A stretch of 64,000 nucleotides of DNA from Elusimicrobiota bacterium (GCA_043827405.1 JBDRPD010000003.1:93914-157913); one strand, 5' to 3'. Counted from the first letter of the stretch, positions 5,620 through 18,835 are shown. Notes: generated by a model not told the origin, from the letters alone. Numbers and translations: made by a program.

Positions 5620-6523
5620 GGGCTTTTTCCCGGTAGGGAGTCGGCGTCGTCGACAGGCTGATCTTCCGGCCGACCAAGGCGGGCGAGGGGATCTTGCCGA
5701 TACGGCCGTCCTGCGCGTCCTCGTGATTGGCGATATCCAGGTCGGCTAGAATCTTGAGCCGGATCACCGCGACCTTGGTCACTTCGGGCGGCACTTCGAA
5801 AAAGGGCGTGAATTCCTCCTCGTCTCCGATGCGGTACTGGATCAGACCGCGCCAGGGTCCGGGCACAATCTCAATCTCGCTGACGCCGCGGACAGCGGCG
5901 TCGGCCAGCAGCGCATCGACGAAATCCACGATCGGCATGTCGGCTTGGTCTTCGCTGCCTTCTTCCTCCTCCCGGCACTTGACGTTGTCGTCCAGCCGTG
6001 TCGACAGTTCGGCCTCAAAGCCCTGGATGGCGTTGCAGTCCTCGAAAGTTACCTGGAAGTGAAAGGTCTTTTTCTCGGCGAGATCGGCGTGCCGCAGCAG
6101 CTCCTCGATATCGGGGTCTCCCAGCGCGGGCCTAAGGCTGTCGGCGAGCTGCTTAAGCTCGCGGAGCAGGGGACGGTAGTCCGTGAGGGAATCCTCGAGC
6201 CATACAAAGTCCTCGAGGTCCCAATAGTCGATGGTCTTGAGGGCTACGTCCTTGCCGGCGCAGTACTCGTACTGGCACAGCCGCACCAGGGCGCGCATGA
6301 TGCGATCGATGTGGAGATAGGCGGTCTTGAGGTCCGCAAGTTGATCGCTTTCCGCTTTTGCGGCCGCGAGTTTATACCAGTCATCGTAGGGCCCGGCCAA
6401 AAAAAGCTGACCCTGCTCGGCCTCGAAGCCGCCGTTGGTGATGTCCCGGTTGACGTAGGCCATCAGCGTCTTCACGTTGCCGAGAATAAATTCCAGGCCG
6501 GCCTGCAGCTTGGCGTTGGACAT
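5603..6523 (-). CDS. Hypothetical protein ending in a GspE/PilB N2-like domain with no ATPase domain
   Basis: PIVDFVDALLADAAVRGVSEIEIVP...IQYRIG...RLKILADLDIANHEDAQDGRI...STTPTPYREKALIRL matches the PilB/GspE segment preceding the ATPase; no Walker A. Confidence 0.7.
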   Translation of the reverse strand: MSNAKLQAGLEFILGNVKTLMAYVNRDITNGGFEAEQGQLFLAGPYDDWYKLAAAKAESDQLADLKTAYLHIDRIMRALVRLCQYEYCAGKDVALKTIDYWDLEDFVWLEDSLTDYRPLLRELKQLADSLRPALGDPDIEELLRHADLAEKKTFHFQVTFEDCNAIQGFEAELSTRLDDNVKCREEEEGSEDQADMPIVDFVDALLADAAVRGVSEIEIVPGPWRGLIQYRIGDEEEFTPFFEVPPEVTKVAVIRLKILADLDIANHEDAQDGRIGKIPSPALVGRKISLSTTPTPYREKALIRLD

Positions 6524-6564
6524 GTCCGCTAAGTTTAAGTGGAAAACGCGGTCTTTTCAAGTTT

Positions 6565-6645
6565 AGATAAGGTGCCAGGCAGGTTATCTAAAGCTAGTAC
6601 TAACTCAGCCTGATCTCTTCAGATAACCTGCCTGGCACCTTATCT
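6565..6645. repeat. REP doublet (REPIN-like): perfect 25-bp inverted repeat with a 31-bp spacer
   Basis: AGATAAGGTGCCAGGCAGGTTATCT (6565-6589) and its exact reverse complement (6621-6645); the same motif flanks the Y1 transposase. Confidence 0.88.
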
Positions 6646-6669
6646 GGGCAAATTGGTAGAATAGCGCCG

Positions 6670-7623
6670 ATGTTGGCCATTCCTGCCGTCGACGAATCCC
6701 TGGAACGCGTACGCGAAGGGTTGGAGCGCCGAGTCGTCACCCTCGGGGGACGCGTCGGCGATCATTTGGCCGAATATATCGGCCGCCCGGGCAAGATGCT
6801 GCGCGCGCGTTATACTTTGCTGCTGGGCGCCGCGCTGGGCGCGGACCAGGGCTTGTGCGAGAAAGTCGCCCGCGCCGTGGAACTGGTGCACAACGCCTCG
6901 CTGCTGCACGATGACTGCATCGACGAGGCCCTGCTGCGCCGCGGAGTGCCGACCCCTAACGCCCGCTTCGGCGACCGCACCGGCATCCTGCTGGGCGACC
7001 TGGCCTTCACCGAGGGGATGGCGGAGGCGGCCGCGGTCTCTCCCCAGGCGGTGGCCGAACTGGTGCGGGCCGTGCGTGAGATGACGGTGGGCGAGCTTCA
7101 GGAGGAGTACCTCTGCGGCAGCCTCAACGTCTCGCTGGAAGGCTACTACGGCGTCGCCGTGCGCAAGACCGCGGCGCTTTTTGACTGGGCGGGGCGCGCC
7201 CTGTCGGGTTGCTCGCCGCTTGAACATGACCGGGAGAACCCGGCCAAGCTCGGCCGCTCGGCCGGCATCCTGCTGCAGATCATCGACGACATTCATGACT
7301 ACACCCTGGATGAGGATACCGCGGGCAAGGATCCCGGCCAGGATTTCGCCAACGGCCGGCTGACTTTACCGGCGATCCTGGCCTTGGACGACGAGGAGAC
7401 GCGTCCGCGCTTTCTGGAACTGTGGCAGAGCCGGGCGCGCGACCCGGAGGCCTTCGACAAGGCGCTCGCGCTGCTGCAGGAACGCGGCCATCTCGAAGCG
7501 GCGCGCGGCATCGCGCGCGAGATCATGGAGGGCATGATCCCCATGGCGGAAGCGCTGCCCGAGCGCGAGGCGGCCGGCCGGATGAAGGAATTTTTGCAGC
7601 TGCTGTTCGCGCGGGAGTTCTGA
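6670..7623 (+). CDS. Polyprenyl diphosphate synthase (trans-IPPS, probably long chain)
   Basis: GKMLR, FARM HNASLLHDDCID..LRRG, KTAALF, SARM QIIDDIHD, GKD.GQDF.NG..TLP; small residue upstream of the FARM suggests a long product. Confidence 0.93.
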   Translation: MLAIPAVDESLERVREGLERRVVTLGGRVGDHLAEYIGRPGKMLRARYTLLLGAALGADQGLCEKVARAVELVHNASLLHDDCIDEALLRRGVPTPNARFGDRTGILLGDLAFTEGMAEAAAVSPQAVAELVRAVREMTVGELQEEYLCGSLNVSLEGYYGVAVRKTAALFDWAGRALSGCSPLEHDRENPAKLGRSAGILLQIIDDIHDYTLDEDTAGKDPGQDFANGRLTLPAILALDDEETRPRFLELWQSRARDPEAFDKALALLQERGHLEAARGIAREIMEGMIPMAEALPEREAAGRMKEFLQLLFAREF

Positions 7624-8075
7624 TGGGGTCCCGCTACCAGAAGTTGGTGCGCAATGCCTGGAAGTCGGGCCAGTACAAGGCGGAGACCGGCGGCGCCGAA
7701 GACGGCGGCGGCGGCGACGCCGCGAACCTGCGGACCCTGCTGCGCTCGAGAATGGAGTGGATCGTGGAGCGTGAGGCGTACGAATTCAAGGGGGCCGAGC
7801 TTCAGCCCAAGGAGAAACCTGCGATGAAATTGGCGCAATATGTGAAGTACCGCGAAGAGAAGTTCGGCGGCGTGCTCTTTGAGACCCGTTCGGAGAAGGT
7901 GTTCACTTTGAGCCCGACCGGTTCGGCGATCGTCAAGGAGATCGTGGCCGGCGGCACCAGCGAGGAGATCGCCTCGCGCCTGAAGGATAAGTACCAGGAT
8001 AAAAACAGCGCGATCGAGAAAGAGGTCGCCGAATTTATCGGCTCGCTGAAGGAAAAAGGCCTGGTCACCGAGTAA
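7623..8075 (+). CDS. PqqD/MftB-like RiPP recognition element, possibly with a 67-aa N-terminal extension
   Basis: From ATG 7824 (AAGGAG RBS): VKYREEKFGGVLFETRSEKVFTLSPTGSAIVKEI..G.TSEEIASRL..KY...IEKEVAEFIGSLKEKGLV, a PqqD-type pattern; in-frame upstream ATG at 7623 overlaps the previous stop (TGATG). Confidence 0.88.
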   Translation: MGSRYQKLVRNAWKSGQYKAETGGAEDGGGGDAANLRTLLRSRMEWIVEREAYEFKGAELQPKEKPAMKLAQYVKYREEKFGGVLFETRSEKVFTLSPTGSAIVKEIVAGGTSEEIASRLKDKYQDKNSAIEKEVAEFIGSLKEKGLVTE

Positions 8076-9059
8076 GTGGAAACGGCCAAGAAAGCCCTGC
8101 CCTCGGAGAGCCCGGCCGATACCGGCACGGGGGATCTCGGCGCGCCCCTCTATGTCGCCTGGCAGATAACCAATGAGTGCAACTTGGCCTGCCTGCACTG
8201 CATCGAGGAGAGCGGCCCGGGCAAGGCATTCAAGGACGAGCTGCCGAAAGACAAGGTCTTCGCTGTGCTCAAGGAGCTGCTCGACGCCGAGGTTCCGTAC
8301 CTGGCGTTTTCGGGCGGCGAGCCGATGATGCATCCGCACTTTTTCGAGATGGTCGAGTTCGTTACCCGGGGCGGCTCCGAGCTGAAGGTCGAGACCAATG
8401 CGCATCTGCTTGACCGCGACGCCTGCCGGCGTCTGGCCGGCTGCGGCATCCGCGCCGCCCAGGTCAGCATGGACGGCGCTTCCGCCGAGACCTATCAGCG
8501 CCTGCGCGCTCGCGGCAGCTTCGACAAGATGCTGGAGGGCGTGCGCGGCCTCAAGGACGCGGGTGTTCCTATCGAAATCAACTACTCGCCGACCAAGTTC
8601 AACGCCGGAGAGATTTCCCGCGCCGTCGACCTCGCCTACGAGCTCGGGGCCGAGAGCTTCTTTACCGGGCGCACCATGTACACCGGCAATGCCGTGCGCG
8701 CCTGGGACCATATCGCTCCTTCCGCCGAGCAGTATGAACGCTTCTTCGCGGATCTGCGCGCGGCTTGCGACAAGTACGAGGGGAAGCTGCGCGTTCACTA
8801 CCACGAGATGGGACTCGTTGAGGAGCTGCGCTACCGCATCAAGCATCCGGCGGCCCTCTTCATTGTTCTGCCCAACGGCTTGGTCAAGCTTATCAACGCC
8901 CTGCCCTTCGTCTGCGGCGACCTGCGCGAGGACTCGGTGCTCGAGGTGTGGCGGAACTTCCAAACCGCCTGGAAAAATCCCCAGGTCGCGGAGTTCGTCG
9001 AGTCTCTGGCGGCCGAACCCAAGCTGACCTCGGAGCTGCATAAATGGGTGCGATTGTAA
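8076..9059 (+). CDS. Radical SAM enzyme 1, MftC/PqqE-like
   Basis: APLYVAWQITNECNLACLHC, FSGGEP, ETNA, QVSMDGA; GTG start abuts the RRE stop. Confidence 0.93.
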   Translation: METAKKALPSESPADTGTGDLGAPLYVAWQITNECNLACLHCIEESGPGKAFKDELPKDKVFAVLKELLDAEVPYLAFSGGEPMMHPHFFEMVEFVTRGGSELKVETNAHLLDRDACRRLAGCGIRAAQVSMDGASAETYQRLRARGSFDKMLEGVRGLKDAGVPIEINYSPTKFNAGEISRAVDLAYELGAESFFTGRTMYTGNAVRAWDHIAPSAEQYERFFADLRAACDKYEGKLRVHYHEMGLVEELRYRIKHPAALFIVLPNGLVKLINALPFVCGDLREDSVLEVWRNFQTAWKNPQVAEFVESLAAEPKLTSELHKWVRL

Positions 9060-9988
9060 AAGATCCGCCGCATTATCAGCGTCCCGCAGGCGCCTGGGGC
9101 GCTTGGGCCCTGCTGTGGAAGATATTCAGCGTGGTGCGCTACCGGTTCTTTCTCTATGCCGGGCTGCTGCCGTACTTGCTGGGCGCGGCCTGGGCTTATG
9201 TCGTGGGCGGCGCCTTTAACCCCCCGGTGTTCTGGATCGGGTTCTGCGGCATATTCCTCTCCGTTGTCGGGGTCGAGGCCTTCAACGAGTACTTCGACTC
9301 GCGTCTGGGGACCGACCGGGTATTCAACCCGGAGGACGAGGATCCGATTCCCGCCTGGGTGCTGGGGCTCGGCATCGCCGCCTTCGCCGCGGCGGCGGCG
9401 ACGGGCATCTATCTCGCCAAGGCCGGCGGCTGGCCGGTCATCCTGTACATGTGCCTGGGCGGCTGCGCCGCGGTGTTTTATGTCGGCCCGCCGATCCGCT
9501 GGGTGTATCGCGGGCTGGGCGAGACCATGATCGCCCTGTCCTATGGGCCGTGGATGGTGCTGGGCAGCCTGCACCTGCAGACGCACGCTTTCTCCTGGGG
9601 AGCGCTCCTGGCGTCCCTGGTTCCCGGGCTGCTGATCATGAGCCTGGCGGTGGTTAACGCGATCCCCGATTTCCATCAGGACCGTTTGGTCGGCAAACGC
9701 AATATCGTCGTGCGCGTCGGCCGCTATAACGGCGTCCTCGTCTATCTCGGCTGCTCGCTTCTGGGGCTGGGTATCCCGGTCTTCGGCGCGGTGCTCGGCG
9801 TCTTCAGCAAGTGGACCTTGCTGACCCTGCTCGCCCTGCCCTTGTGGTGGTCCAGCCGCCGCGCGGCCCTGGCGCACTACGATACGCCGCGCGATTTCGT
9901 GCCGGCGGTGCGCGCGATCGTGCTGTGCTATCTGACGGCAACGAGCTTGTTTATCGTCTCGCTGTTTCTGAGCCTGATTAAATGGTGA
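9044..9988 (+). CDS. UbiA-superfamily (MenA-like) membrane prenyltransferase
   Basis: Multiple TM helices; FNEYFDSRLGTD, YRGLGE and NAIPDFHQDRLVGKRN motifs. Confidence 0.92.
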   Translation: MGAIVKDPPHYQRPAGAWGAWALLWKIFSVVRYRFFLYAGLLPYLLGAAWAYVVGGAFNPPVFWIGFCGIFLSVVGVEAFNEYFDSRLGTDRVFNPEDEDPIPAWVLGLGIAAFAAAAATGIYLAKAGGWPVILYMCLGGCAAVFYVGPPIRWVYRGLGETMIALSYGPWMVLGSLHLQTHAFSWGALLASLVPGLLIMSLAVVNAIPDFHQDRLVGKRNIVVRVGRYNGVLVYLGCSLLGLGIPVFGAVLGVFSKWTLLTLLALPLWWSSRRAALAHYDTPRDFVPAVRAIVLCYLTATSLFIVSLFLSLIKW

Positions 9989-10968
9989 GCACGGCGCACA
10001 TCGACAGCCTGCGGGCGCCGCTTATGGTTTCCTGGCAGCTGACCCGCGGCTGCAACCTCGCCTGCCTGCACTGCTGCACCGAATCCGCGCCGGGTAAGGT
10101 CCTGGAGGGCGAGCTGAACCGGGCCGAGGCCCTGCGCTTCGCCGCCCGGCTCATCGAGGCGGATGTCCCCTATGTCATGCTCTGCGGCGGCGAGCCGTTC
10201 ACCGTGGAGTGGTTTCTCGATGTCGCCAGCCGGCTCGGGAAAAGCGGCGTGCAGCTGAAGATCGAGACCAATGCCCAGCATCTGGAAGGGTTCGCGCTCG
10301 ATGTCCTCGCCCGCCTGCCGGTGCGCTCGATCCAGGTCTCCTTGGACGGCGCGTCGCAGACGGCCTACGGCGCCCAGCGGGCCGGCGGCGATCTCGAGAA
10401 GGCGCTCGACTCCTGCCGGCGCATCCGCGCGGCCGGCCTGCCGCTGGAGATCACCTTCGCTCCCACCGTCTATAATATCCACGAAGGAGAAGCGGTCCTG
10501 CGCCGGGCGGTAGAGCTGGGAGCCTTCCGCTTCAATACCGGCCGCCTGATGCGCATCGGCACCGCCGCCAAGTTCTGGGACAAGCTCGATCCGCCGGAGC
10601 GTCATTGGCATGAGTTCCTGGAAATCCTCGAACAAGCGGAACGGGAGTTTTCAGGAGAGATCGAACTTTGCTATCGTCCCTTTACGATCCAGGAAGGTTT
10701 GCGTGAAGGCTTGTCGGCGCCGCCGGCGACCCTCCTGGTTCTGCCGCACGGCAAGGTCAAGGTGGCGGCTTCGTTGCCTTATATTTGTGCGGACGTGCGT
10801 CGGCAGTCGATCGCGGAATGCTGGGACGCCTACCGGGCGGCTTGGCGGCGTCCAGAGGTGCATAAGGCGATCGAAGCGGTGCTGAAGGATCCGGGCTTCC
10901 TCGAAGAAGCCAACTGCTGGCGGCCGTTGGACGAAGAAGAGCAGTCCGTACCGATTTCCCGCACCTGA
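9982..10968 (+). CDS. Radical SAM enzyme 2, paralog of enzyme 1
   Basis: APLMVSWQLTRGCNLACLHCC, CGGEP, IETNA, QVSLDGA. Confidence 0.93.
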   Translation: MVSTAHIDSLRAPLMVSWQLTRGCNLACLHCCTESAPGKVLEGELNRAEALRFAARLIEADVPYVMLCGGEPFTVEWFLDVASRLGKSGVQLKIETNAQHLEGFALDVLARLPVRSIQVSLDGASQTAYGAQRAGGDLEKALDSCRRIRAAGLPLEITFAPTVYNIHEGEAVLRRAVELGAFRFNTGRLMRIGTAAKFWDKLDPPERHWHEFLEILEQAEREFSGEIELCYRPFTIQEGLREGLSAPPATLLVLPHGKVKVAASLPYICADVRRQSIAECWDAYRAAWRRPEVHKAIEAVLKDPGFLEEANCWRPLDEEEQSVPISRT

Positions 10969-11034
10969 GGGTGCGGAACAGATCTGCCGCCGGTCCATGG
11001 GCCGGTAGTGGAACTCCGTGATCATGGAGATCGT

Positions 11035-11145
11035 ATGAACGAGAAGAACATCGCGATTAAGGTTGAGAAGCTCGAGTGGGAGACGCCCTGTCTTGAGGAA
11101 GTATCCCAGCGGGTGATGGCTCAGCCCTACATTCGCTTCACGTGA
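11035..11145 (+). CDS. Putative RiPP precursor peptide, 36 aa: MNEKNIAIKVEKLEWETPCLEEVSQRVMAQPYIRFT
   Basis: Manual translation; GGAGA RBS at 11026-11030; TGA overlaps the GTG start of radical SAM 3 (GTGA); WxxPxL resembles RRE-binding leader motifs. Confidence 0.82.
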   Translation: MNEKNIAIKVEKLEWETPCLEEVSQRVMAQPYIRFT

Positions 11146-12125
11146 GCAATCAGAGGGGGGCATCGGTAGGCGACTACCGCGCCCCCCTCTTTCTCGCGTG
11201 GCAGCTGACCAACCGCTGCCAAGCGCACTGCCTCACCTGCTGCGAGGAGTCCGGGCCGGAGAATGCCTGGAAAGACGAGCTCGCGGAGGATGAGGCTGTT
11301 TCTTTCGCCTGCCGCATCGTCGAATCCGGCATCCAGTACGCGGCTTTCGGCGGCGGCGAACCATTGGCCGTTCCCCACTTCTGGAAGATCGCCCGCATTC
11401 TGGCCTCGGGCGGCGTCGAGCTCAAGCTCGAGACCAACGGCCTGCCCATTGACGACGAGAAGGCCGACATCCTGCAGGCGCTCAAGGTCTTGTGCGTGCA
11501 GATTTCCGTCGACGGAGCGAGCAAGGAAACTTTCGAGAAGGTGCGTCCCGGCGGCGACTACGACGGCGTCATCGCCGCGATCAAGCGGCTGGTCGCGCGC
11601 GGCCTGCATCCCGAATACGTCTTCGTGCCCAACCGGCTCAATGTCCATGAGGCGGCCGCGGCCTACGATCATGCCGTCGACCTCGGCTGCCGCACCTTCG
11701 TCACCGGGCCGATGATGCGCCTCGGCCGCGCGGCGGCGGGCTGGGACGAACTGTCTTTAAACGATGAGCAGTGGAAGGCCGCGGAGGAAGCCCTGCGTGA
11801 GCGCGAGGCCGCGCACCGGAAAGCGGTCAAGCTTTCGATTTATCCCTGGGACATTCGCACCGAGCTGGAGAAGCGCCTGCTCGAGCCGCAGGCCCTGCTT
11901 CTGGTCGTGCCCAACGGCAAGGTCAAGCTGCTCAACGCCCTGCCCTTCGCCCCCGCCGATGTCCGCCAACACAATATCGAGGAAGCCTGGAGACTCTACA
12001 AGGAAGCCTGGAAGTCCGACGAAGTCGAGCACTTCATCAAGGCCTGCCGCACCCGCCCGGAGCTTCTGCTCCACGCCAACGAAACCTGGCCCATGGGGCA
12101 ATGGGCCGCACTTAATCCCGCCTAA
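11142..12125 (+). CDS. Radical SAM enzyme 3, paralog of enzymes 1 and 2
   Basis: APLFLAWQLTNRCQAHCLTCC, FGGGEP, LETNG, QISVDGA. Confidence 0.93.
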   Translation: MSNQRGASVGDYRAPLFLAWQLTNRCQAHCLTCCEESGPENAWKDELAEDEAVSFACRIVESGIQYAAFGGGEPLAVPHFWKIARILASGGVELKLETNGLPIDDEKADILQALKVLCVQISVDGASKETFEKVRPGGDYDGVIAAIKRLVARGLHPEYVFVPNRLNVHEAAAAYDHAVDLGCRTFVTGPMMRLGRAAAGWDELSLNDEQWKAAEEALREREAAHRKAVKLSIYPWDIRTELEKRLLEPQALLLVVPNGKVKLLNALPFAPADVRQHNIEEAWRLYKEAWKSDEVEHFIKACRTRPELLLHANETWPMGQWAALNPA

Positions 12126-12137
12126 TCCCCCTCAGTA

Positions 12138-13136
12138 AAGGTGCCAGGCATGTTATCCAAAGGAACTTTTTTTCCTGCGGGTCGTACTCGGAGATGTACG
12201 TCCTTGGTTTATATGCCTCGAATCCCCAGACCTGATAGTGCGAGAGCCTTTGTGCATGTCGTCGCTCGCGGCAATAACAAGGCGCGAATATTCCTTGATG
12301 TAATTGATAATTCGGAGTTCGTCAGGTTGCTCTCCTTGGGGATTTCACGTTATGGGGCGGAGCTGCATGCTTATTGCTTGATGCCGAACCATATCCATTT
12401 ACTGCTTCGCGATGCTTTAGGCCGGCTGTCGGATATGATGGAGTGGACTCTGGGGAATTATGCCAGAAAGTTTAATAAGCGCCATGGAAGAGTCGGACAT
12501 GTTTTCCAAGGCAGGTACCGTGCAAAATTGATTATCCGGACAACCCACTTCTATGTGGCAGGTCGCTATATCCACATGAACCCTGTCCGAGGAGGGTTGT
12601 GTGAACGACCGGAAGATTACCCCTGGAGCAGTATGAGGGCATATCTTGGATTGGAAGAGGCCGGCTTGTTGTCGAGAGAGTCATTGTGGGCGCCGTACTC
12701 AGATTTGGGTTTGGGGTCTGTATCCGCGATGTATGAGTTTACGACGCGCACTCCGTATGCTTCAGATCATGCCGCGTCAGCAGTGCCCGATGGAGTGGCC
12801 GGTAATGCGCTACGTGCCGCCGTGGTAGCTCGGCCTCCAGGTGAGATGCGGGTGATCGAAGAAGTCGCGAACCTCTTCGACGCAAGTGCCGGCGCGTTGT
12901 TGGAGCGCAGCAGAAGACGCCGCTTGAGGATCGCTCGATCAGTCGCGATGCTGGCAGTTAGGGATAAGATCGGAATGCCGCTCGCCGATATCGCACGAAT
13001 TTTCGGTATGAAATCCCAAAACGGCGTCTCGCTTGCGATTAACCGGCTGCGTAAACGAGCATGTGCCGATCGTTGTCTGGTGAATAGGCTGACAGATTTA
13101 GGTTTGACCACGATTGGATAACCTGCCTGGCACCTT
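12138..13136. mobile_element. RAYT-type element: Y1 transposase gene flanked by inverted REP-like repeats
   Basis: AAGGTGCCAGGCATGTTATCCAA (12138-12160) and TTGGATAACCTGCCTGGCACCTT (13114-13136) are inverted with 22/23 identity; interior visibly lower GC. Confidence 0.85.
12213..13121 (+). CDS. REP-associated tyrosine transposase (Y1/HUH) with C-terminal DnaA_C-like HTH
   Basis: MPRIPR, HVVARGNN, YCLMPNHIHLL (HUH), GHVFQGRY, YIHMNPV, YPWSS; C-terminal ARSVAM...PLADIARIFG. Confidence 0.9.
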   Translation: MPRIPRPDSARAFVHVVARGNNKARIFLDVIDNSEFVRLLSLGISRYGAELHAYCLMPNHIHLLLRDALGRLSDMMEWTLGNYARKFNKRHGRVGHVFQGRYRAKLIIRTTHFYVAGRYIHMNPVRGGLCERPEDYPWSSMRAYLGLEEAGLLSRESLWAPYSDLGLGSVSAMYEFTTRTPYASDHAASAVPDGVAGNALRAAVVARPPGEMRVIEEVANLFDASAGALLERSRRRRLRIARSVAMLAVRDKIGMPLADIARIFGMKSQNGVSLAINRLRKRACADRCLVNRLTDLGLTTIG

Positions 13137-13154: not shown

Positions 13155-13781
13155 CTATTGGGAAAAGCGGCGGTCGGCGTTCTCGAATACCTTCAGCACC
13201 CGGTCCTCGGTGTTGCCGCGCAGCAGGCGCAGCGGCACCAGGTAGTAGAAGAGCCAGTGCGAGCGCGCTTCTGCTGTTAATTCGATATCGAGGTGTTCGG
13301 GGCTGTCAGTTCGTTTAGATAACATGCCTGGCACCTTATCTGAAGGATGGAAGGTCAGCTCGCAGCGGACGTCCTGGACCAGGCGCGTCGGCGTTTCGAG
13401 CTTGGCGATCAGACGCGGCGGCTTCTCATCGAGGCGGTCCTCGACCAGCAGCGTCAGCGAGTGGGACCCCTTGAAGTAGCGGCTGAAGCTGTAGTCGAAG
13501 CGGAAGCGCCGGTGCGCCGCCTCATAGCGCAGGCCGTCGATGGATATCATGTACGCCTTCTCGCGGCCGGCGCGCGGTTCGTTGATGTCGCGCAGCGCCC
13601 ACTTCTCGTAATCCGCGAAGCCGCGCAGCACCGGCAGGGCGCGAATAAAATTAACGCTGATGGGCCCCGCGCCGGTTAGGTGAAATCGTCCATCGCTCTT
13701 TGTCAGGCGGGCGGAAGCGGCTTCGAGGGGCGCGCAGAGTAGGAGAAGCAGCCCCGCCGCCGTTAGTGGCAGGCGGCGCAT
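13155..13781 (-). CDS. Secreted hypothetical protein (possible START/SRPBCC-like fold) containing an in-frame REP copy
   Basis: Signal peptide MRRLPLTAAGLLLLLCAPLEA; ATG overlaps the end of the cytochrome gene. Confidence 0.65.
   Translation of the reverse strand: MRRLPLTAAGLLLLLCAPLEAASARLTKSDGRFHLTGAGPISVNFIRALPVLRGFADYEKWALRDINEPRAGREKAYMISIDGLRYEAAHRRFRFDYSFSRYFKGSHSLTLLVEDRLDEKPPRLIAKLETPTRLVQDVRCELTFHPSDKVPGMLSKRTDSPEHLDIELTAEARSHWLFYYLVPLRLLRGNTEDRVLKVFENADRRFSQ
13317..13341. repeat. REP copy inside a coding sequence
   Basis: AGATAACATGCCTGGCACCTTATCT, 24/25 identical to 6621-6645; encodes DKVPGMLS on the minus strand. Confidence 0.85.
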
Positions 13782-14407
13782 TTTAAGGTGCCGGTCGGCT
13801 TCTTCCAGTGCGCGGGCGCCGGATCGCGGCGGTGGCAGTCCATGCACCAGCCCATGGACATGCGGCTGACCTTCTGTACGCGATCCATGGTCTGCACCGG
13901 ACCATGGCATTCCTGGCACAGGATATTGTTGCCGATATGGCTCTGGTGGCTGTATCTTACGTAGCCGGGAAGCCGATGCACCCGGATCCATTCCACTTCA
14001 TCGCTCGTTACCTTCAGCGCTTCGCGGTCATGGCATTGCAGGCAGTGATTCAGTTTCGGATAGCCTGTCTTCTCGCCTTTGCCGGCTTCGCGGTGGCAGC
14101 TCCAGCAGGCCAGACCCAGGTCACCCGCATGCTTCTTGTGTGAAAAAGCAACCGGCTGCTCCGGCGCGAAGCCGAAGTTCAGCCCCACGCCGCCGAAAGC
14201 CCAAAAGGCCGCCAGCAAGCCGGGAAGCATGACCGCGCCCGCGCCGCCGGGCTGTCCCTTGCGCAGCAGCCAGATCGCGACCGCCAGAATGATAAGCAGA
14301 AAAAGCAGGCCGAGGATGGATATGCTCTCGCCGGTATCCGGCAGGGGCAAGGTGCTGAGATCGATGCTTAGCGCCGCCTCGTTGTAAATCTCGGAGATGT
14401 TTTTCAT
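13763..14407 (-). CDS. Membrane-anchored pentaheme cytochrome c (ActA/QrcA-like)
   Basis: Five CxxCH motifs (CWSCH, CLQCH, CQECH, CMDCH, CAACH); PEQPVAFSHKKHAG, WIRVHRLP.YV.YSH, MGWCMDCHR. Confidence 0.9.
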   Translation of the reverse strand: MKNISEIYNEAALSIDLSTLPLPDTGESISILGLLFLLIILAVAIWLLRKGQPGGAGAVMLPGLLAAFWAFGGVGLNFGFAPEQPVAFSHKKHAGDLGLACWSCHREAGKGEKTGYPKLNHCLQCHDREALKVTSDEVEWIRVHRLPGYVRYSHQSHIGNNILCQECHGPVQTMDRVQKVSRMSMGWCMDCHRRDPAPAHWKKPTGTLKCAACH

Positions 14408-14536: not shown

Positions 14537-17500
14537 ATGCGGATAGCGAACAGGCTCTTGGCCGCGTTTATCGCTTGCTCTTTAGCGGCGCAGCCCGCGC
14601 TGGCTCAAGTCAAGGTTGTCGGCGTAAAGGCTGTTGCTCCGAATGTCTCCGCAGCCGCCGGTGCCGCAGGGGTTAAGGCGCTCGCACCGCTGAGTTTTAC
14701 CCCGACATCTCTGCAGCTGAACTCCGCGGTTCTGCCCAGCGTCGAAAATCTTCAGCTCCAGCCGTCAAGTCAGCTCAAGCAGCTCTCGCAGCCCGCTGCC
14801 GTCGTCGGGCCCTCCGCATCGGCGGTCAAAGAGACCGCGCCGGCCAAGACCGTTTTTCAGAAGAAGCTTAATGCCATCGGCAAAGCGGTCGAAGACGCCG
14901 GCCGCGGCGCGGAGAATAAATCCGCCGAAGGCGGCAAGCTCGCCGCGGACAAGCAGTTCCATGCTCTGGGTATCAGCGCCGGCGAAGAGGACTTCGCCCA
15001 GCTCTTCGAGGAGAGCCTCTCGGCTTGGGAAAAGGGCGCGCTCAAGCCCGCCGCCGGCGGCAGTACCGCCAAAGAGCTCCTGGCCGAAGATACGCCGCAT
15101 TTTACCGGCGAGCAGCTGCAGCATATCCGGCAAGCCAGCCGCGCCATGGAAGCCGCGGTGACCAAGGCGGCCGCGCAGCTTTTGCCGGGAGCCGGTATCC
15201 GGGCGGTGTCGCGCGGTTCGAGCGCGCGCCTCACGCAGGACGACACGCGGGTGGACTACGACATCATGGCGGCGCTGCCCGCCGACTGGTCCGCCGACAA
15301 GGTTCACAGCTTTATGCAGGAGCGCCGCAAGGACTTGAGCGCCGCCTTGGAGAGCGCGATCCGCGAGGAGGCCGCGGCGCTGTTTCCCGGGCAGGATATC
15401 GAGGTGGAGGCCGGCTCTTATGTCCAGCTGTCCGATCCGGTGACGCATTCTCCCGATAAGGGCGTCTATATGCTGCCGGTTAAAGTGCTCAGCGCCGAGG
15501 GGAAGGTCCTGCTCGACGCCGACGTAACCTTTACCAATCTGGCGAAGTACACCAACGACTATCCCGGCTACTTCGCGGCGCAGCTGGAGCAGGTGGCGCA
15601 GCTGGGCGGCCAGGGGGCGGTCGATGAGGTGCTCGGTTCCATCCGCCTGGCCAAGCGGATGTTCAAGGAAGTCGTGGGCGCCTACAAGGTCTGGCGCGGC
15701 GGCCCCAGCGGCGTCGGCGTCGAGCAAATGATCATGCAGTCGGGCCGCGTCGAGAGCGCCGACAAGGGACAGACCGTGCTCGAGCCCGGCGACTTCGACA
15801 AGTTCATGGATCGCATCAACGATATCGCTTTCGACCAGGACGGCCGCTACCGCGGCCTCAAACAGGCGGCGCGATTGTGGAGCGTCTTCAACCCTTTCCG
15901 CGAGCCGGTCAATTTTCTGACCCACCTCAGCGACAAGGCCTGGCGGCGCCTGGCCGACGCGGCGCGCAATTACCGCATGGCCAAGGTCGCGGGCCGCCCC
16001 GTTTCCTTCAAAGAGCTGGGCTACCGCCGGCCGGATCCGCAGGCGGCGTTGGCCGCTTCCAAGCCGGCCGAATTGCCGGTGCGCGAGACAACGACTTTAG
16101 CCTTCGGCTTCACGTCCGCGCAGGAGAAGATCAATATGCAGCGGGCGGTGCGCGAGGCGGTGCGCGCGCTGCCCGAATCCAAAGAGAAGATCGCGGCGGC
16201 GACGCTGACCGGCGGCCGGGCCAACAAGACCAATTCCTACCAGCTGTCGCTGGTGGTCGAGGGCGGCGCCGGCATGGAGATCACCCAGCTGCTGCGCGAC
16301 CAGCTGAGCTTCAGCGACCGCTCAGTCGAATACGAGGGAGAGGCCGCGGTGCGGAAGAACCGCGATCTGCTCGTCTTCTTCCGCGCCCAGGGCAAGTCGT
16401 ACCAGCCAAAAACTCTCGACCTGGTGCAGAAGGCCGCCAAGCGGCTGGCCCGGCACTTCAAGAGCAGGGGGAGCGTCACGGTCGGCCAGCGCCCCGGTCC
16501 GGGCGGGGAGTTTATGGCGGTGGTTAAGCTCGAGCCGAACGCCGAGGCGGCGGCGGTCGGCAAAGAGATTCAGGAGTTCTTCCGCACGGCGGGCGGCGGC
16601 ATGCGCCTGACCGGGGTTTCGTTGCCGGCCGGTGTTCCCACCTCCCAGGCCCGGGCTCCCAAGGAAGACGCCGGCGAGGAGAGCGCCGGCAAGGGGAGCG
16701 CCGGCAGAGAGAGCGCCGGCGGGGTCACGCTTGAGATGCTGGAAAAGTTTACCACCCACGGCCCCAAGCCTTCCCGGCGCGGCGACGCCTATCTTTACGC
16801 CCAGGGCGCCAAGGTCCTGCCGGCGGGTTTCGAAGCCGCCTGGGCGAACCGGCCGGAGGCCGGGTCCGGCGGCGGCGACACAATACAGCGCAGCCTGCTG
16901 CTGCGGCGGGGCGGCAAGACTTACGTCCTCGTGCCCACCATCCGGAGCGACGGCGAGCCGGGAATGAAGCCCGCCAATGTCTCTCCCGAATTGGCCGCGG
17001 GAATTATCACCGATACTCTGGTTGAGGCCGAGCTAAGGGACGGCCAAGTCGTTTCGGTTAAGCCGATCGGCTCTTATGCCATGGACATGATGATCGGGCG
17101 GGCGAGAAAGAATAACGGCCGGTGGATGCTCGATGCCTTGCTGCGCGACGGCAAGAATCCCAAGACGCTTTACGGCCGCATGCCGCTGGCCGGCGCTGAG
17201 AACCTTAAGGAAGGCGAGATCGTGCAGGCCTTCATCAAGCCCGACGGCCGCGGCTACTCCGCCGAGGCCATGCTCGACCTCGGAGCGGAGCTCACTCCCG
17301 AGATCGTCGCCCGCGAGATCGCTCTGCGCCATGGCGCGCGCGGCTACTTCGAGAAAGCCGTGATCGAGCAGGCCGAGAAGGCGGGGGCGAGCGGGAAAGC
17401 GCCGCCCAAGTTCCGGGATTTGCGCGAGTTCGCTTTCGTCACCGTCGACCCCATCGGCGCCGGCGATCTAGACGACGCCTTCTATGTCGAGAAGCATGCC

Positions 17501-18835
17501 GACGGCGGCTATACCTGGTACCTGGCGACCGCCGACGTCGACCAGTTCGTGCCGCCGGGAACGCCGGCCTTCCGCACCGCCGCCCGCATCGGCAATACCT
17601 TCTACTCCATCGACAAGGACGGGGTGCCGGAATATCCCATGAATCATCCCGTGGTCTCGAAGTATGCGGCCAGCCTGCTGGCCGGCAAGGACAGCCTGGC
17701 GATGATTACCCGCATGCGCTTCGGTCCGAACGGCGAGTTCCTCAAGGACGAGTCCGAAGTCTTCCTCGGCGAGGTGCGGGTGCAGGGACGCTACACCTAT
17801 GAGCAGGTCGTGGATTTATGGCAGGACCGCGCCGGTCACGGTATCGAGCATGTCGAGCAGATCACCCTGGCCCGCGAGCTGGCCTCCAAGCTCGACGCCA
17901 GCGACGCTCAGCGCGGCAAGCTGGCCTTGCGCTTCCAGCAGGTCGCGCACAGCCCGCAGGCGGACGGCACCTGGCGGAGCGCGGTCGTGGAGGAGGACCC
18001 GCACCTAACCGAGTCGCACAAGCTCATCGAGGAGCTCAAGGTCTACGGCAACCGCGCCATCGCCAAACTTCTTGAACGCATCACCGCGGAATACGGCGTC
18101 CCGCATATCAGCCGCGTCCATCCGCAGCAGGAGGAGGCGATCAACCGCAAGCTGCGCAAGAATATCCAGAAGCTTGGACTGCGCTGGGAGAAGGACGAAA
18201 ACCTGTGGGACTTCCTGCGCGGCCTGCAGGAGCGCGCGGACCTGACCGACGAGGGGCGCGAGGTCGCGCAGATGCTTGCTTTGATGACGCGGCGCACCGC
18301 GCAGTACGAGATCAAGGATGCTGACGGCCATGAGGGGCTGGCGCTGGAGGCCGGCATGTACGACCACCCCTCGACGCCCATCCGGCGCTTCGCCGATATG
18401 TATAACCGGGCGATTCTGGAAGCCTACCTTGAGGGCCGCGACCCGCGCGAGCACTACGCCGCGGTGCAGAAGGACCTGACCGATATGGGCTTTCGCGGGC
18501 TGGAAGAGTATATGCTCCACCTCAACGGCCGCGAGGCGGCGTCCAAGCTGATGGACCGCGAGGTCGACGAGTTTATGTCGATCTACGAGCTGGCCAAGCC
18601 CGAGCACCAGGGCAAAACCTACCGCGCCTATGTGAAGATCTTCCGCGACGGCCGCAACCCGCTGGCGGTGCTGCAGCTGCGCGACCTGCCGGTCAGCATC
18701 ACGCTGAAAGGCGACGAGGTCGGCGACTGGAAGCTGCTCGACGAGCTGGAGCTGACCATCCACGGCGCCGATCCTGAGCGCGCCAAGGTCGACGCCTCGG
18801 TGCGCAAGCTCGGCCGCCTGCCGGCGCTTAAGTAG
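14537..18835 (+). CDS. Large signal-peptide protein: class I nucleotidyltransferase-like domain plus RNB (RNase II/R) domain and S1-like tail
   Basis: RNB motifs FVTVDPIGAGDLDDAF, ATADVDQFV, SHKLIEE, GHEGLAL..YDHPSTPIRRFAD; N-terminal RGSSARLT....VDYDI resembles the pol-beta motif. Confidence 0.82.
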   Translation: MRIANRLLAAFIACSLAAQPALAQVKVVGVKAVAPNVSAAAGAAGVKALAPLSFTPTSLQLNSAVLPSVENLQLQPSSQLKQLSQPAAVVGPSASAVKETAPAKTVFQKKLNAIGKAVEDAGRGAENKSAEGGKLAADKQFHALGISAGEEDFAQLFEESLSAWEKGALKPAAGGSTAKELLAEDTPHFTGEQLQHIRQASRAMEAAVTKAAAQLLPGAGIRAVSRGSSARLTQDDTRVDYDIMAALPADWSADKVHSFMQERRKDLSAALESAIREEAAALFPGQDIEVEAGSYVQLSDPVTHSPDKGVYMLPVKVLSAEGKVLLDADVTFTNLAKYTNDYPGYFAAQLEQVAQLGGQGAVDEVLGSIRLAKRMFKEVVGAYKVWRGGPSGVGVEQMIMQSGRVESADKGQTVLEPGDFDKFMDRINDIAFDQDGRYRGLKQAARLWSVFNPFREPVNFLTHLSDKAWRRLADAARNYRMAKVAGRPVSFKELGYRRPDPQAALAASKPAELPVRETTTLAFGFTSAQEKINMQRAVREAVRALPESKEKIAAATLTGGRANKTNSYQLSLVVEGGAGMEITQLLRDQLSFSDRSVEYEGEAAVRKNRDLLVFFRAQGKSYQPKTLDLVQKAAKRLARHFKSRGSVTVGQRPGPGGEFMAVVKLEPNAEAAAVGKEIQEFFRTAGGGMRLTGVSLPAGVPTSQARAPKEDAGEESAGKGSAGRESAGGVTLEMLEKFTTHGPKPSRRGDAYLYAQGAKVLPAGFEAAWANRPEAGSGGGDTIQRSLLLRRGGKTYVLVPTIRSDGEPGMKPANVSPELAAGIITDTLVEAELRDGQVVSVKPIGSYAMDMMIGRARKNNGRWMLDALLRDGKNPKTLYGRMPLAGAENLKEGEIVQAFIKPDGRGYSAEAMLDLGAELTPEIVAREIALRHGARGYFEKAVIEQAEKAGASGKAPPKFRDLREFAFVTVDPIGAGDLDDAFYVEKHADGGYTWYLATADVDQFVPPGTPAFRTAARIGNTFYSIDKDGVPEYPMNHPVVSKYAASLLAGKDSLAMITRMRFGPNGEFLKDESEVFLGEVRVQGRYTYEQVVDLWQDRAGHGIEHVEQITLARELASKLDASDAQRGKLALRFQQVAHSPQADGTWRSAVVEEDPHLTESHKLIEELKVYGNRAIAKLLERITAEYGVPHISRVHPQQEEAINRKLRKNIQKLGLRWEKDENLWDFLRGLQERADLTDEGREVAQMLALMTRRTAQYEIKDADGHEGLALEAGMYDHPSTPIRRFADMYNRAILEAYLEGRDPREHYAAVQKDLTDMGFRGLEEYMLHLNGREAASKLMDREVDEFMSIYELAKPEHQGKTYRAYVKIFRDGRNPLAVLQLRDLPVSITLKGDEVGDWKLLDELELTIHGADPERAKVDASVRKLGRLPALK

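Follow-up and report, generated by a model that had tools for sequence, protein, structure and literature searches.

A 36-codon open reading frame (ORF) in the genome of an Elusimicrobiota bacterium is, judging from its conservation in related genomes, a real gene, and we hold it very probable that its product represents a new family of precursor peptides with the core at the C-terminus. The ORF lies in a stretch of 64,000 nucleotides (GCA_043827405.1 JBDRPD010000003.1:93914-157913), hereafter the window, within an operon that also encodes a polyprenyl diphosphate synthase, a PqqD-type chaperone, three radical S-adenosylmethionine (SAM) enzymes and a MenA-like membrane prenyltransferase of the UbiA family. 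The cassette is nearly universal in one order of respiring Elusimicrobiota where no known quinone pathway was found, and we lean towards a prenylated, peptide-derived membrane molecule as its product, which may be an undescribed membrane-bound electron carrier.

The peptide gene

From the ATG at 11035-11037, 36 sense codons encode MNEKNIAIKVEKLEWETPCLEEVSQRVMAQPYIRFT and are followed by a TGA at 11143-11145, which overlaps the GTG (11142-11144) at which radical SAM 3, an enzyme of 327 amino acids, starts. The coordinates 11035..11145, the GGAGA ribosome-binding site and the stop/start overlap that had been given in an initial annotation of this DNA are all borne out by the sequence, and the peptide is unannotated, as had also been claimed, in that no Pfam or NCBIfam model recognises it. 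A longer form of 45 amino acids, beginning at a GTG at 11008, was rejected, since in six-frame translations of 30 related loci the similarity begins at the methionine of the 36-amino-acid form. The gene is single-copy in its own genome.

The translation signals and the coding pattern are conserved along with the peptide. A Shine-Dalgarno-like motif, mostly AAGGAGA, is found 5′ of the peptide ATG in 150 of 151 distinct loci. The portion from W15 to the stop occurs in 68 distinct DNA versions, in which the invariant residues use two to four synonymous codons (four apiece for A29, P31, R34 and T36) and the stop codon is TGA in 56 and TAA in 12.

As for transcription, a 266-nt contig from the RNA library of a sediment metatranscriptome (run X6) covers 11109-11374 with two differences, spanning the 3′ end of the peptide gene and the start of radical SAM 3; contaminating DNA is possible, and the contig is a weak hint of transcription at most. 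Two further RNA runs belong to the study from which the window's sample probably comes; one (X9) gave no cover of the window, and the other (X10) a partial match only, at 10033-10065, far from the peptide ORF. In a scan of 6300-12400, promoter-like sites numbered 2 (0.9 expected) and terminator-like sites 9 (4.7 expected); none of either kind immediately flanks the peptide gene, which therefore shows no sign of being a separate transcription unit.

Conservation of the peptide

Matches to the peptide at E <= 2.6e-8 were obtained in 54 of 61 related genomes; there was no match in five others (G018, G024, G026, G028 and G029), and the matches in the remaining G049 and G050 were at chance level. 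VMAQPYIRFT is the C-terminus at all 30 related loci that were fetched. Since the genome, metagenome and codon sets were collected with the peptide as bait, an unvarying tail is to some degree presupposed in them, which does not hold for the synonymous substitutions, the ribosome-binding site or the retention of start and stop codons. A profile search of 1.84 billion cluster representatives, which is less biased than the peptide-bait sets, gave 99 matches at E <= 1e-3, and among the 97 in which tails were counted 65 end in VMAQPYIRFT and 13 in IMAQPYIRFT ([VI]MAQPYIRFT in 78/97). Four of the 97 (P0124, P0138, P0143 and P0148), short forms of 37-43 amino acids, have phenylalanine in place of Tyr32 (...MAQPFIRFT), and a phenol is thus not strictly required at this position.

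The conservation is of a two-part kind: a variable N-terminus precedes W15-x-x-P18-x-[LMI]-E-[ED]-V, after which comes R/Q-V-M-A-Q-P-Y-I-R-F-T. In a first set (A1), W15, P18, E21, E22 and V23 are invariant in 53/53 sequences and the C-terminal tail is invariant as well, while in a wider set (A2) W15 and P18 are still nearly invariant and A-Q-P-x-I-R-F-T is invariant. Met28, four residues before Tyr32, is nearly invariant, and Cys19 varies.

At least 584 relatives were found among metagenome stretches, from groundwater, soil and sediment, and 57 in a collection of 5.8 billion clusters queried with the 45-amino-acid ORF from the upstream GTG, where the sole name was "hypothetical protein". A profile search of the PDB with the peptide family gave chance matches only, and a protein atlas placed the peptide among unnamed clusters, the nearest named ones being lasso-type leader peptides at 0.79, a lead only. 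The initial annotation had read the ORF as a new precursor family with a C-terminal core, and had proposed a search for similar ORFs in homologous clusters. Such ORFs exist in 54 of the 61 relatives, with conserved W-x-x-P and an invariant C-terminal tail, and the reading is well supported by the comparison of sequences, that is, by the two-part conservation, the lack of any Pfam or NCBIfam match and the failure of the PqqA model to find the peptide.

The operon and its enzymes

The genes follow each other in the order synthase, PqqD, radical SAM 1, UbiA, radical SAM 2, peptide, radical SAM 3 (Table 1), with reading frames that abut or overlap, which suggests that the operon is translationally coupled.

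Table 1. Position of the peptide gene, its parts and the genes of its operon in the window
Feature	Position	Strand	Remarks
Polyprenyl diphosphate synthase	6670..7623	+	PF00348, 150.5 bits; best matches long-chain types
PqqD-type chaperone (putative RiPP recognition element, RRE), 150 amino acids	7623..8075	+	PF05402, 44.4 bits; PqqD domain 7824-8072
Radical SAM 1	8076..9059	+	PF04055, 79.2 bits; paralogue common to the minimal cassette
MenA-like UbiA-family membrane prenyltransferase	9044..9988	+	PF01040, 67.2 bits
Radical SAM 2	9982..10968	+	PF04055, 64.9 bits; best NCBIfam match MftC, 86 bits (cut-off 265)
Shine-Dalgarno-like GGAGA	11026..11030	+	4 nt 5′ of the peptide ATG
Precursor peptide gene	11035..11145	+	36 amino acids and TGA; no Pfam or NCBIfam family
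Conserved recognition stretch W15-E-T-P18-C-L-E-E-V23	11077..11103	+	Putative RRE-binding part of the leader
Invariant C-terminal tail R26-VMAQPYIRFT36	11110..11142	+	Putative core
Radical SAM 3	11142..12125	+	PF04055, 69.7 bits; best NCBIfam match MftC, 96.1 bits (cut-off 265)

The enzymes of the operon look active from their catalytic motifs. In the radical SAM enzymes CX3CX2C and GGEP are at least 97% conserved (56-70 orthologues per operon enzyme), as are both DDxxD motifs of the synthase and, in 67 sequences, the Asp-rich motifs N81-x3-D85-x5-D91 and D209-x3-D213 of the UbiA enzyme, which we take to be its catalytic motifs. The best NCBIfam match of the synthase is solanesyl-diphosphate synthase (136 bits, below the cut-off), with hepta-, octa- and nonaprenyl synthases also matching, and the UbiA enzyme best matches MenA models (NF004751, 100.4 bits against a cut-off of 264; TIGR00751, 63.8 against 102.15), scores at which it was not accepted as a MenA equivalog.

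Radical SAM 1 has CX3CX2C and one further invariant cysteine in 64/64 sequences, radical SAM 2 one cysteine beyond CX3CX2C that is conserved in 67/70, and radical SAM 3 no conserved cysteine beyond that motif. With at most one further cysteine kept, these radical SAM enzymes are without SPASM/twitch auxiliary clusters. The AlphaFold2 model of radical SAM 1 (predicted local distance difference test, pLDDT, 91.3) has SkfB as its nearest fold (6efn, E 5.4e-18, TM 0.72), further near folds being PqqE (6c8v, E 7.3e-14), BlsE, SuiB and CteB; by sequence, SkfB and PqqE are the only close PDB matches, with E-values for radical SAM 3 of 2.8e-16 and 1.6e-7, respectively.

For the PqqD-type protein the NCBIfam lasso and PQQ (pyrroloquinoline quinone) PqqD models score below cut-off. 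An alignment of 65 orthologous ORFs places its probable start at an ATG overlapping the synthase stop. A conserved N-terminal extension of ~67 residues (7623-7823), marked by motifs near A-W-K-S-G and E-M-E-E-I..R-E, occurs in the three-enzyme cassette, the PqqD proteins of the minimal form described below being only about 100 amino acids long.

The context had been under-read in the initial annotation, for the MenA-like prenyltransferase and the polyprenyl synthase are defining partners as well as the radical SAM enzymes. Directly after radical SAM 3, a 326-amino-acid ORF (12141-13121, +) combines an IS200-like/REP-associated Y1 transposase domain with a DnaA C-terminal helix-turn-helix. Farther downstream are a protein of 1432 amino acids (14537-18835, +), whose C-terminal half matches RNase R/RNase II below cut-offs and whose N-terminal ~840 residues match nothing, and, beside a LolA-like protein, an MMPL/sterol-sensing-domain transporter fused to a C-terminal cyclic-nucleotide-binding domain (19944-22670, +).

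Two architectures of the cassette

When one genome per species was scanned with a pattern, 99 relatives of the peptide emerged, of which 80 were kept; nearly all of these come from metagenome-assembled genomes titled Elusimicrobia or Elusimicrobiota, the exceptions in label being one WOR-3 and one Ktedonobacter. The window's gene order is found at 77 of the 80 loci, and where there was room, PqqD, three radical SAM genes and UbiA follow the same order in 47 of 48 loci, the synthase being present too in 44 of 48.

Eighty of the metagenome loci were likewise kept for a count of architectures. The three-enzyme order is present at 54, a minimal order (peptide, PqqD, one radical SAM, UbiA) at 23, and at 3 the peptide stands without these enzymes nearby; the minimal type comprises 21 loci assigned by script and two (L206 and L210) that the script had labelled "other" owing to an overlapping ORF. 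All nine three-enzyme loci with room are complete, and the minimal cassette is complete in 8/8 loci with at least 2.4 kb downstream, as well as in L206 and L210. Among the minimal forms, one (L186) has in addition a long-chain synthase and another (L154) a class I methyltransferase. In a maximum-likelihood tree the three radical SAM paralogues form separate clades (radical SAM 1, 100/100; 2, 100/99; 3, 100/100) and the one radical SAM enzyme present in the minimal form groups as sister of radical SAM 1 (98/85), which points to peptide, PqqD, radical SAM 1 and UbiA as the constant core of the cassette.

The peptide and UbiA are jointly absent in four relatives (G018, G029, G049 and G050). A fifth genome, G024, was rejected as operon-less, because a 59%-identical radical SAM 1 lies at a contig end where the operon is cut by the assembly. 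Four peptide copies (L166:10007-10123, L176:6990-7106, L193:3639-3755 and one in L109) have no PqqD, radical SAM 1 or UbiA nearby. The L166 copy comes after Rnf/Nqr-type and NuoE/NuoF-like genes and before a HemN-like radical SAM gene, and in L193 a polyprenyl synthase is located ~850 nt downstream of the peptide.

Putative recognition of the peptide by the PqqD-type protein

The predicted complex of the PqqD domain and the peptide (alignments of 35 and 53, respectively) had a score of 0.48 (runs 0.48, 0.49 and 0.45), the best of three controls reaching 0.01; the runs agree in at least 94% of contacts, with a partner pLDDT of at least 54. The mark for a complex was reached by 116 of 157 solved complexes and by 2 of 215 mismatched pairs, counts that hold only roughly here, author-built alignments having been used, and of those that reached it only 18 of the 157 solved complexes, together with both passing mismatches, did so at 0.60 or under. 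As structures of RRE-leader complexes are already known, the pass could stem from resemblance to them and not from binding. This model lends weak support to an interaction between the WxxP stretch and the PqqD domain, and W-x-x-P-x-L is best called a putative recognition element, by virtue of the conservation of W15 and P18 and of analogy, the Y-x-x-P-x-L motif being one that functions in lasso-peptide leaders. What had initially been described as an RRE-binding motif of the W/YxxPxL type is present and conserved, as W-x-x-P-x-[LMI]; the predicted complex with the PqqD domain gives weak support for its binding.

Quinone pathways and respiratory genes

The genome to which the window belongs (98% complete) has three UbiA genes, namely a heme O synthase beside CoxB, a DPPR-synthase-like gene and that of the operon, which is the only MenA-like enzyme among them. 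It has two polyprenyl synthases, a farnesyl diphosphate synthase over the cut-off and the operon enzyme, the only one of long-chain type. In this genome MqnA/D were not found, nor any MenD or MenG/UbiE over cut-off, and NuoH (381 bits) and CoxB are kept. The 61 relatives give the same picture, with MqnA/D in 0/61, MenD over cut-off in 0/61 and NuoH in 61/61.

The phylum as a whole was represented by 201 evenly sampled genomes that are at least 85% complete. The peptide is present in 10 of them, all within the window's order (0/189 elsewhere), and MqnA/D in 11, all of which fall in the same class but in other families; peptide and MqnA/D never occur together, so that the distribution of the cassette in the phylum excludes that of the futalosine pathway. 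MenD over cut-off was found in 2 of the 201 genomes and NuoH at E <= 1e-70 in 69.

Respiratory genes adjoin the cassette at several other loci, as identified by Pfam scans of chosen loci. In L197 an Rnf/NQR-type operon ending in an NqrF-like gene is directly upstream of the cassette, and in L155 an NqrF-like gene follows UbiA. NapC/NirT quinol-dehydrogenase-type cytochromes are near the cassette in L186 and L165, the latter having also an MtrB-type porin with multihaem cytochromes, a START/Coq10-type lipid-binding protein, and a molybdoenzyme with an iron-sulphur (Fe-S) subunit and cytochrome b. In L200 and L216 the cassette has fumarate reductase, fumarase and DcuB in its vicinity. In the window itself, a multihaem cytochrome c gene (13763-14407, -) lies 1.6 kb from the operon, its best NCBIfam match being QrcA, a menaquinone reductase subunit, at 55.9 bits against a cut-off of 180. 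As to the membrane complex of L197 (3145-8637), its six genes encode an RnfC-like Fe-S protein, RnfD/NqrB, an FMN_bind protein, two Rnf-Nqr subunits and an NqrF-like protein (2Fe-2S, FAD, NAD), a hybrid of Rnf and NQR features.

A possible route to a peptide-derived lipid

We propose that the PqqD-type protein would bind the W-x-x-P-x-L-E-E-V stretch and present the tail R-VMAQPYIRFT to radical SAM 1, which is the enzyme common to all cassette forms, while radical SAM 2 and 3 would add further steps in this lineage. The tail would undergo radical C-H chemistry by the radical SAM enzymes, probably in the region of Tyr32/Phe35, after which the MenA-like UbiA enzyme would couple a long polyprenyl chain, supplied by the synthase of the same operon, to the altered tail or to a piece excised from it. 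This would yield a peptide-derived molecule anchored in the membrane, whose most likely role would be that of a redox cofactor or electron carrier for quinone-type respiratory enzymes.

That the product is a radical-SAM-modified, prenylated, peptide-derived membrane molecule appears reasonably probable to us; that it serves as the quinone-like respiratory carrier of the lineage is a more tentative suggestion. As a carrier, it would arise by conversion of the ...MAQPYIRFT tail into a redox-active ring system by the radical SAM enzymes and prenylation of that ring by the MenA-like enzyme, and the cassette would constitute a third, peptide-based route to a quinone-like lipid, replacing the classical and futalosine menaquinone pathways. 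It is conceivable, if doubtful, that a ribosomal peptide, and not chorismate, is the source of the carrier's head group in this order and in other lineages that have the minimal cassette. This role is suggested because the operon holds the only MenA-like enzyme and the only long-chain synthase of the genome, because no MenD, MqnA/D or MenG was found there, and by the distribution in the phylum and the respiratory neighbours.

Several points weigh against this proposal. The chemistry of the cassette is entirely inferred, and we know of no UbiA-family enzyme shown to act on a peptide. The radical SAM enzymes are without the auxiliary-cluster cysteines usual in cross-linking RiPP (peptide made on the ribosome and modified after translation) maturases, and Pfam and NCBIfam scans found no protease or transporter gene in the operon. 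The replacement of Tyr32 by phenylalanine in 4/97 profile matches argues against a head group that needs a phenol. The only hint of expression is the RNA-library contig (11109-11374), which could be DNA. The synthase is absent beside the 9/9 complete three-enzyme metagenome loci, there are the peptide copies without enzymes nearby in L109, L166, L176 and L193, and one genome with the minimal cassette (G062) also has an MqnP-like prenyltransferase. The four operon-less relatives, of the same order and 92-99% complete, have neither MenD nor MqnA/D yet keep NuoH and heme O synthase, and in other parts of the phylum both the peptide and MqnA/D are missing from many genomes that are positive for NuoH; the lack of known quinone pathways is thus not specific to holders of the operon. 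On the strength of these genomes the strong form in which the operon would be the sole quinone route was rejected. Finally, related genomes are not independent, so the complementary pattern rests on few evolutionary events.

Among the alternatives, an ordinary secondary-metabolite RiPP, that is, an antibiotic or signalling peptide that is lipidated (prenylated), is either secreted or bound to the membrane and lies outside core energy metabolism, seems fairly improbable to us. A precursor with an RRE and radical SAM enzymes is the standard RiPP layout, the nearest folds of radical SAM 1 are RiPP maturases, the nearest named atlas clusters are the lasso-type leaders (a lead only), and prenylated peptides exist, e.g. 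ComX and the cyanobactins. However, the cores of natural products usually vary, whereas this tail is nearly invariant across lineages with enzymes that are only 41-47% identical; the gene is single-copy, no transporter, immunity or protease gene was detected in the operon by the Pfam and NCBIfam scans, and occurrence in 54 of 61 genomes of an order, with respiratory genes adjoining the cassette at other loci, is more housekeeping-like.

It is also possible, but unlikely, that the operon brings together two modules linked by nothing but their adjacency: one, of synthase and MenA-like enzyme, would attach a tail to an aromatic head group that is not peptidic and is made elsewhere, and the other, of peptide, PqqD and radical SAM proteins, would make an unrelated soluble product or cofactor. 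The MenA models as best matches of UbiA, the want of any known peptide-using UbiA enzyme, the additional MqnP-like gene in G062 and the copies of the peptide that lie apart from the enzymes would all fit such an arrangement. Nevertheless, UbiA accompanies the peptide, PqqD and radical SAM genes in the one architecture as in the other despite their different gene order, it is interleaved between radical SAM genes with overlapping frames, peptide and UbiA are lost together, and MenD, MqnA/D and MenG, which would serve a naphthoquinone head group, were not found in the genome.

We consider it very unlikely that the peptide is a divergent PqqA or MftA and that the operon serves the synthesis of PQQ, mycofactocin or a closely similar soluble compound. 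The PqqD-type partner, the PqqE/MftC-like radical SAM enzymes, the W-x-x-P stretch, the tyrosine four residues from the C-terminus and the two of 55 family members that touch the Pfam PqqA model (E 0.055 or worse) are shared features, but the model misses the peptide in the scan of its own genome, there is no Glu four before Tyr and no G-V-Y end, PqqB/PqqC and MftD/E/F families were not found in the operon by the Pfam and NCBIfam scans, and the radical SAM enzymes score 86-96 with MftC models against 265 and 49-50 with PqqE models against 381. That the ORF is untranslated and the conserved stretch an RNA or DNA element, such as a regulatory leader for radical SAM 3, is scarcely credible: the ORF is shorter than the usual gene-calling length and was read here from nucleic acid alone, but its invariant residues vary synonymously (22 codons, 68 DNA versions) with the stop kept as TGA (56) or TAA (12), the Shine-Dalgarno-like motif and ATG are kept in 150 of 151 loci, and the peptide sequence is also kept at the head of the minimal cassette instead of before radical SAM 3.

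Were the product the membrane electron carrier, the respiration of such lineages would be accounted for and quinone-type biosynthesis would gain a new route; if it is instead a lipidated peptide of other function, the cassette would still hold new enzymology, with cluster-poor radical SAM maturases and peptide-linked UbiA prenylation. In practical terms, the peptide gene was missed by gene callers and is without a family model, and a W-x-x-P...MAQPYIRFT model would mark the cassette. Few cofactors are known to be carved from ribosomal peptides, PQQ and mycofactocin being examples, and we know of none to which a membrane enzyme of the UbiA type attaches an isoprenoid tail. We found no paper describing the cassette or the tail string in the full-text literature, subscription journals lying outside the coverage. 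In the parts consulted of a preprint on groundwater Elusimicrobia (Méheust et al., 10.1101/765248), radical SAM genes are mentioned only beside nitrogenase paralogues and the cassette is not mentioned.

Comparison with known systems

The peptide gene has the general layout of an RRE-dependent RiPP precursor, being a small ORF beside a PqqD protein and tailoring enzymes, with separate recognition and core segments. It could not be assigned to the lasso peptides: W-x-x-P-x-[LMI] is present as in their leaders, but lasso cyclase and protease families were not found in the operon by the Pfam and NCBIfam scans.

With the PQQ core the cassette shares a short peptide of ribosomal origin in which an aromatic residue close to the C-terminus is conserved, a separate chaperone of the PqqD family (PF05402) and a PqqE-like radical SAM fold, and the near-invariance of the peptide is as expected of a cofactor precursor. 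In contrast, E-x-x-x-Y, PqqB, PqqC and PqqF are missing here, the radical SAM enzymes are without the SPASM cysteines, and the PQQ core has neither the MenA-like prenyltransferase nor the polyprenyl synthase, both of which the cassette has. Membership in PqqA (PF08042) was rejected, the weak matches in two of 55 relatives being accompanied in the own genome by a match elsewhere at E 2.67. The E-x-x-x-Y whose residues are cross-linked by PqqE is replaced by a pair in which Met28 sits four before Tyr32, in agreement with the initial annotation, which had noted both this difference from PqqA and the want of the MftA tail, the peptide ending in I-R-F-T.

Mycofactocin is the other peptide-based system with evident likenesses: MftC is the best NCBIfam match of radical SAM 2 and 3, there is a PqqD-like partner in both, and both have a small redox-linked peptide with an invariant C-terminal tail. 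The differences are that the cassette has no C-terminal G-V-Y and no MftD/E/F, and that it has a prenyltransferase instead of a glycosyltransferase. Membership in MftA was rejected on the tail ...I-R-F-T and on TIGR03962 scores of 86 and 96.1 bits against 265.

The SkfB/twitch maturases offer, in SkfB (6efn), the closest solved structure by sequence and fold and the same overall two-domain layout, but here the cysteines of the auxiliary clusters are not kept, no RRE is fused to the enzyme, and the peptide has no core cysteines that would give thioethers (Cys19 varies). Despite the SkfB/PqqE-nearest fold and the kept CX3CX2C, the enzymes were not placed in the SPASM/twitch group, as their auxiliary-cluster cysteines are not conserved.

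The tailing step of menaquinone synthesis (MenA with a long-chain synthase) resembles the lipid half of the cassette, whose UbiA best matches MenA models with both Asp-rich motifs kept, is paired with a synthase of long-chain type and has quinone-dependent respiratory genes nearby at several loci; but no Men/Mqn head-group genes or MenG were found here, and UbiA is situated inside a peptide-maturation operon. Taken together, the gene content points to a cassette distinct from all of these by its fixed MenA-like UbiA, often with its own long-chain synthase, and by radical SAM enzymes that would act as maturases with their CX3CX2C motif but without auxiliary-cluster cysteines.

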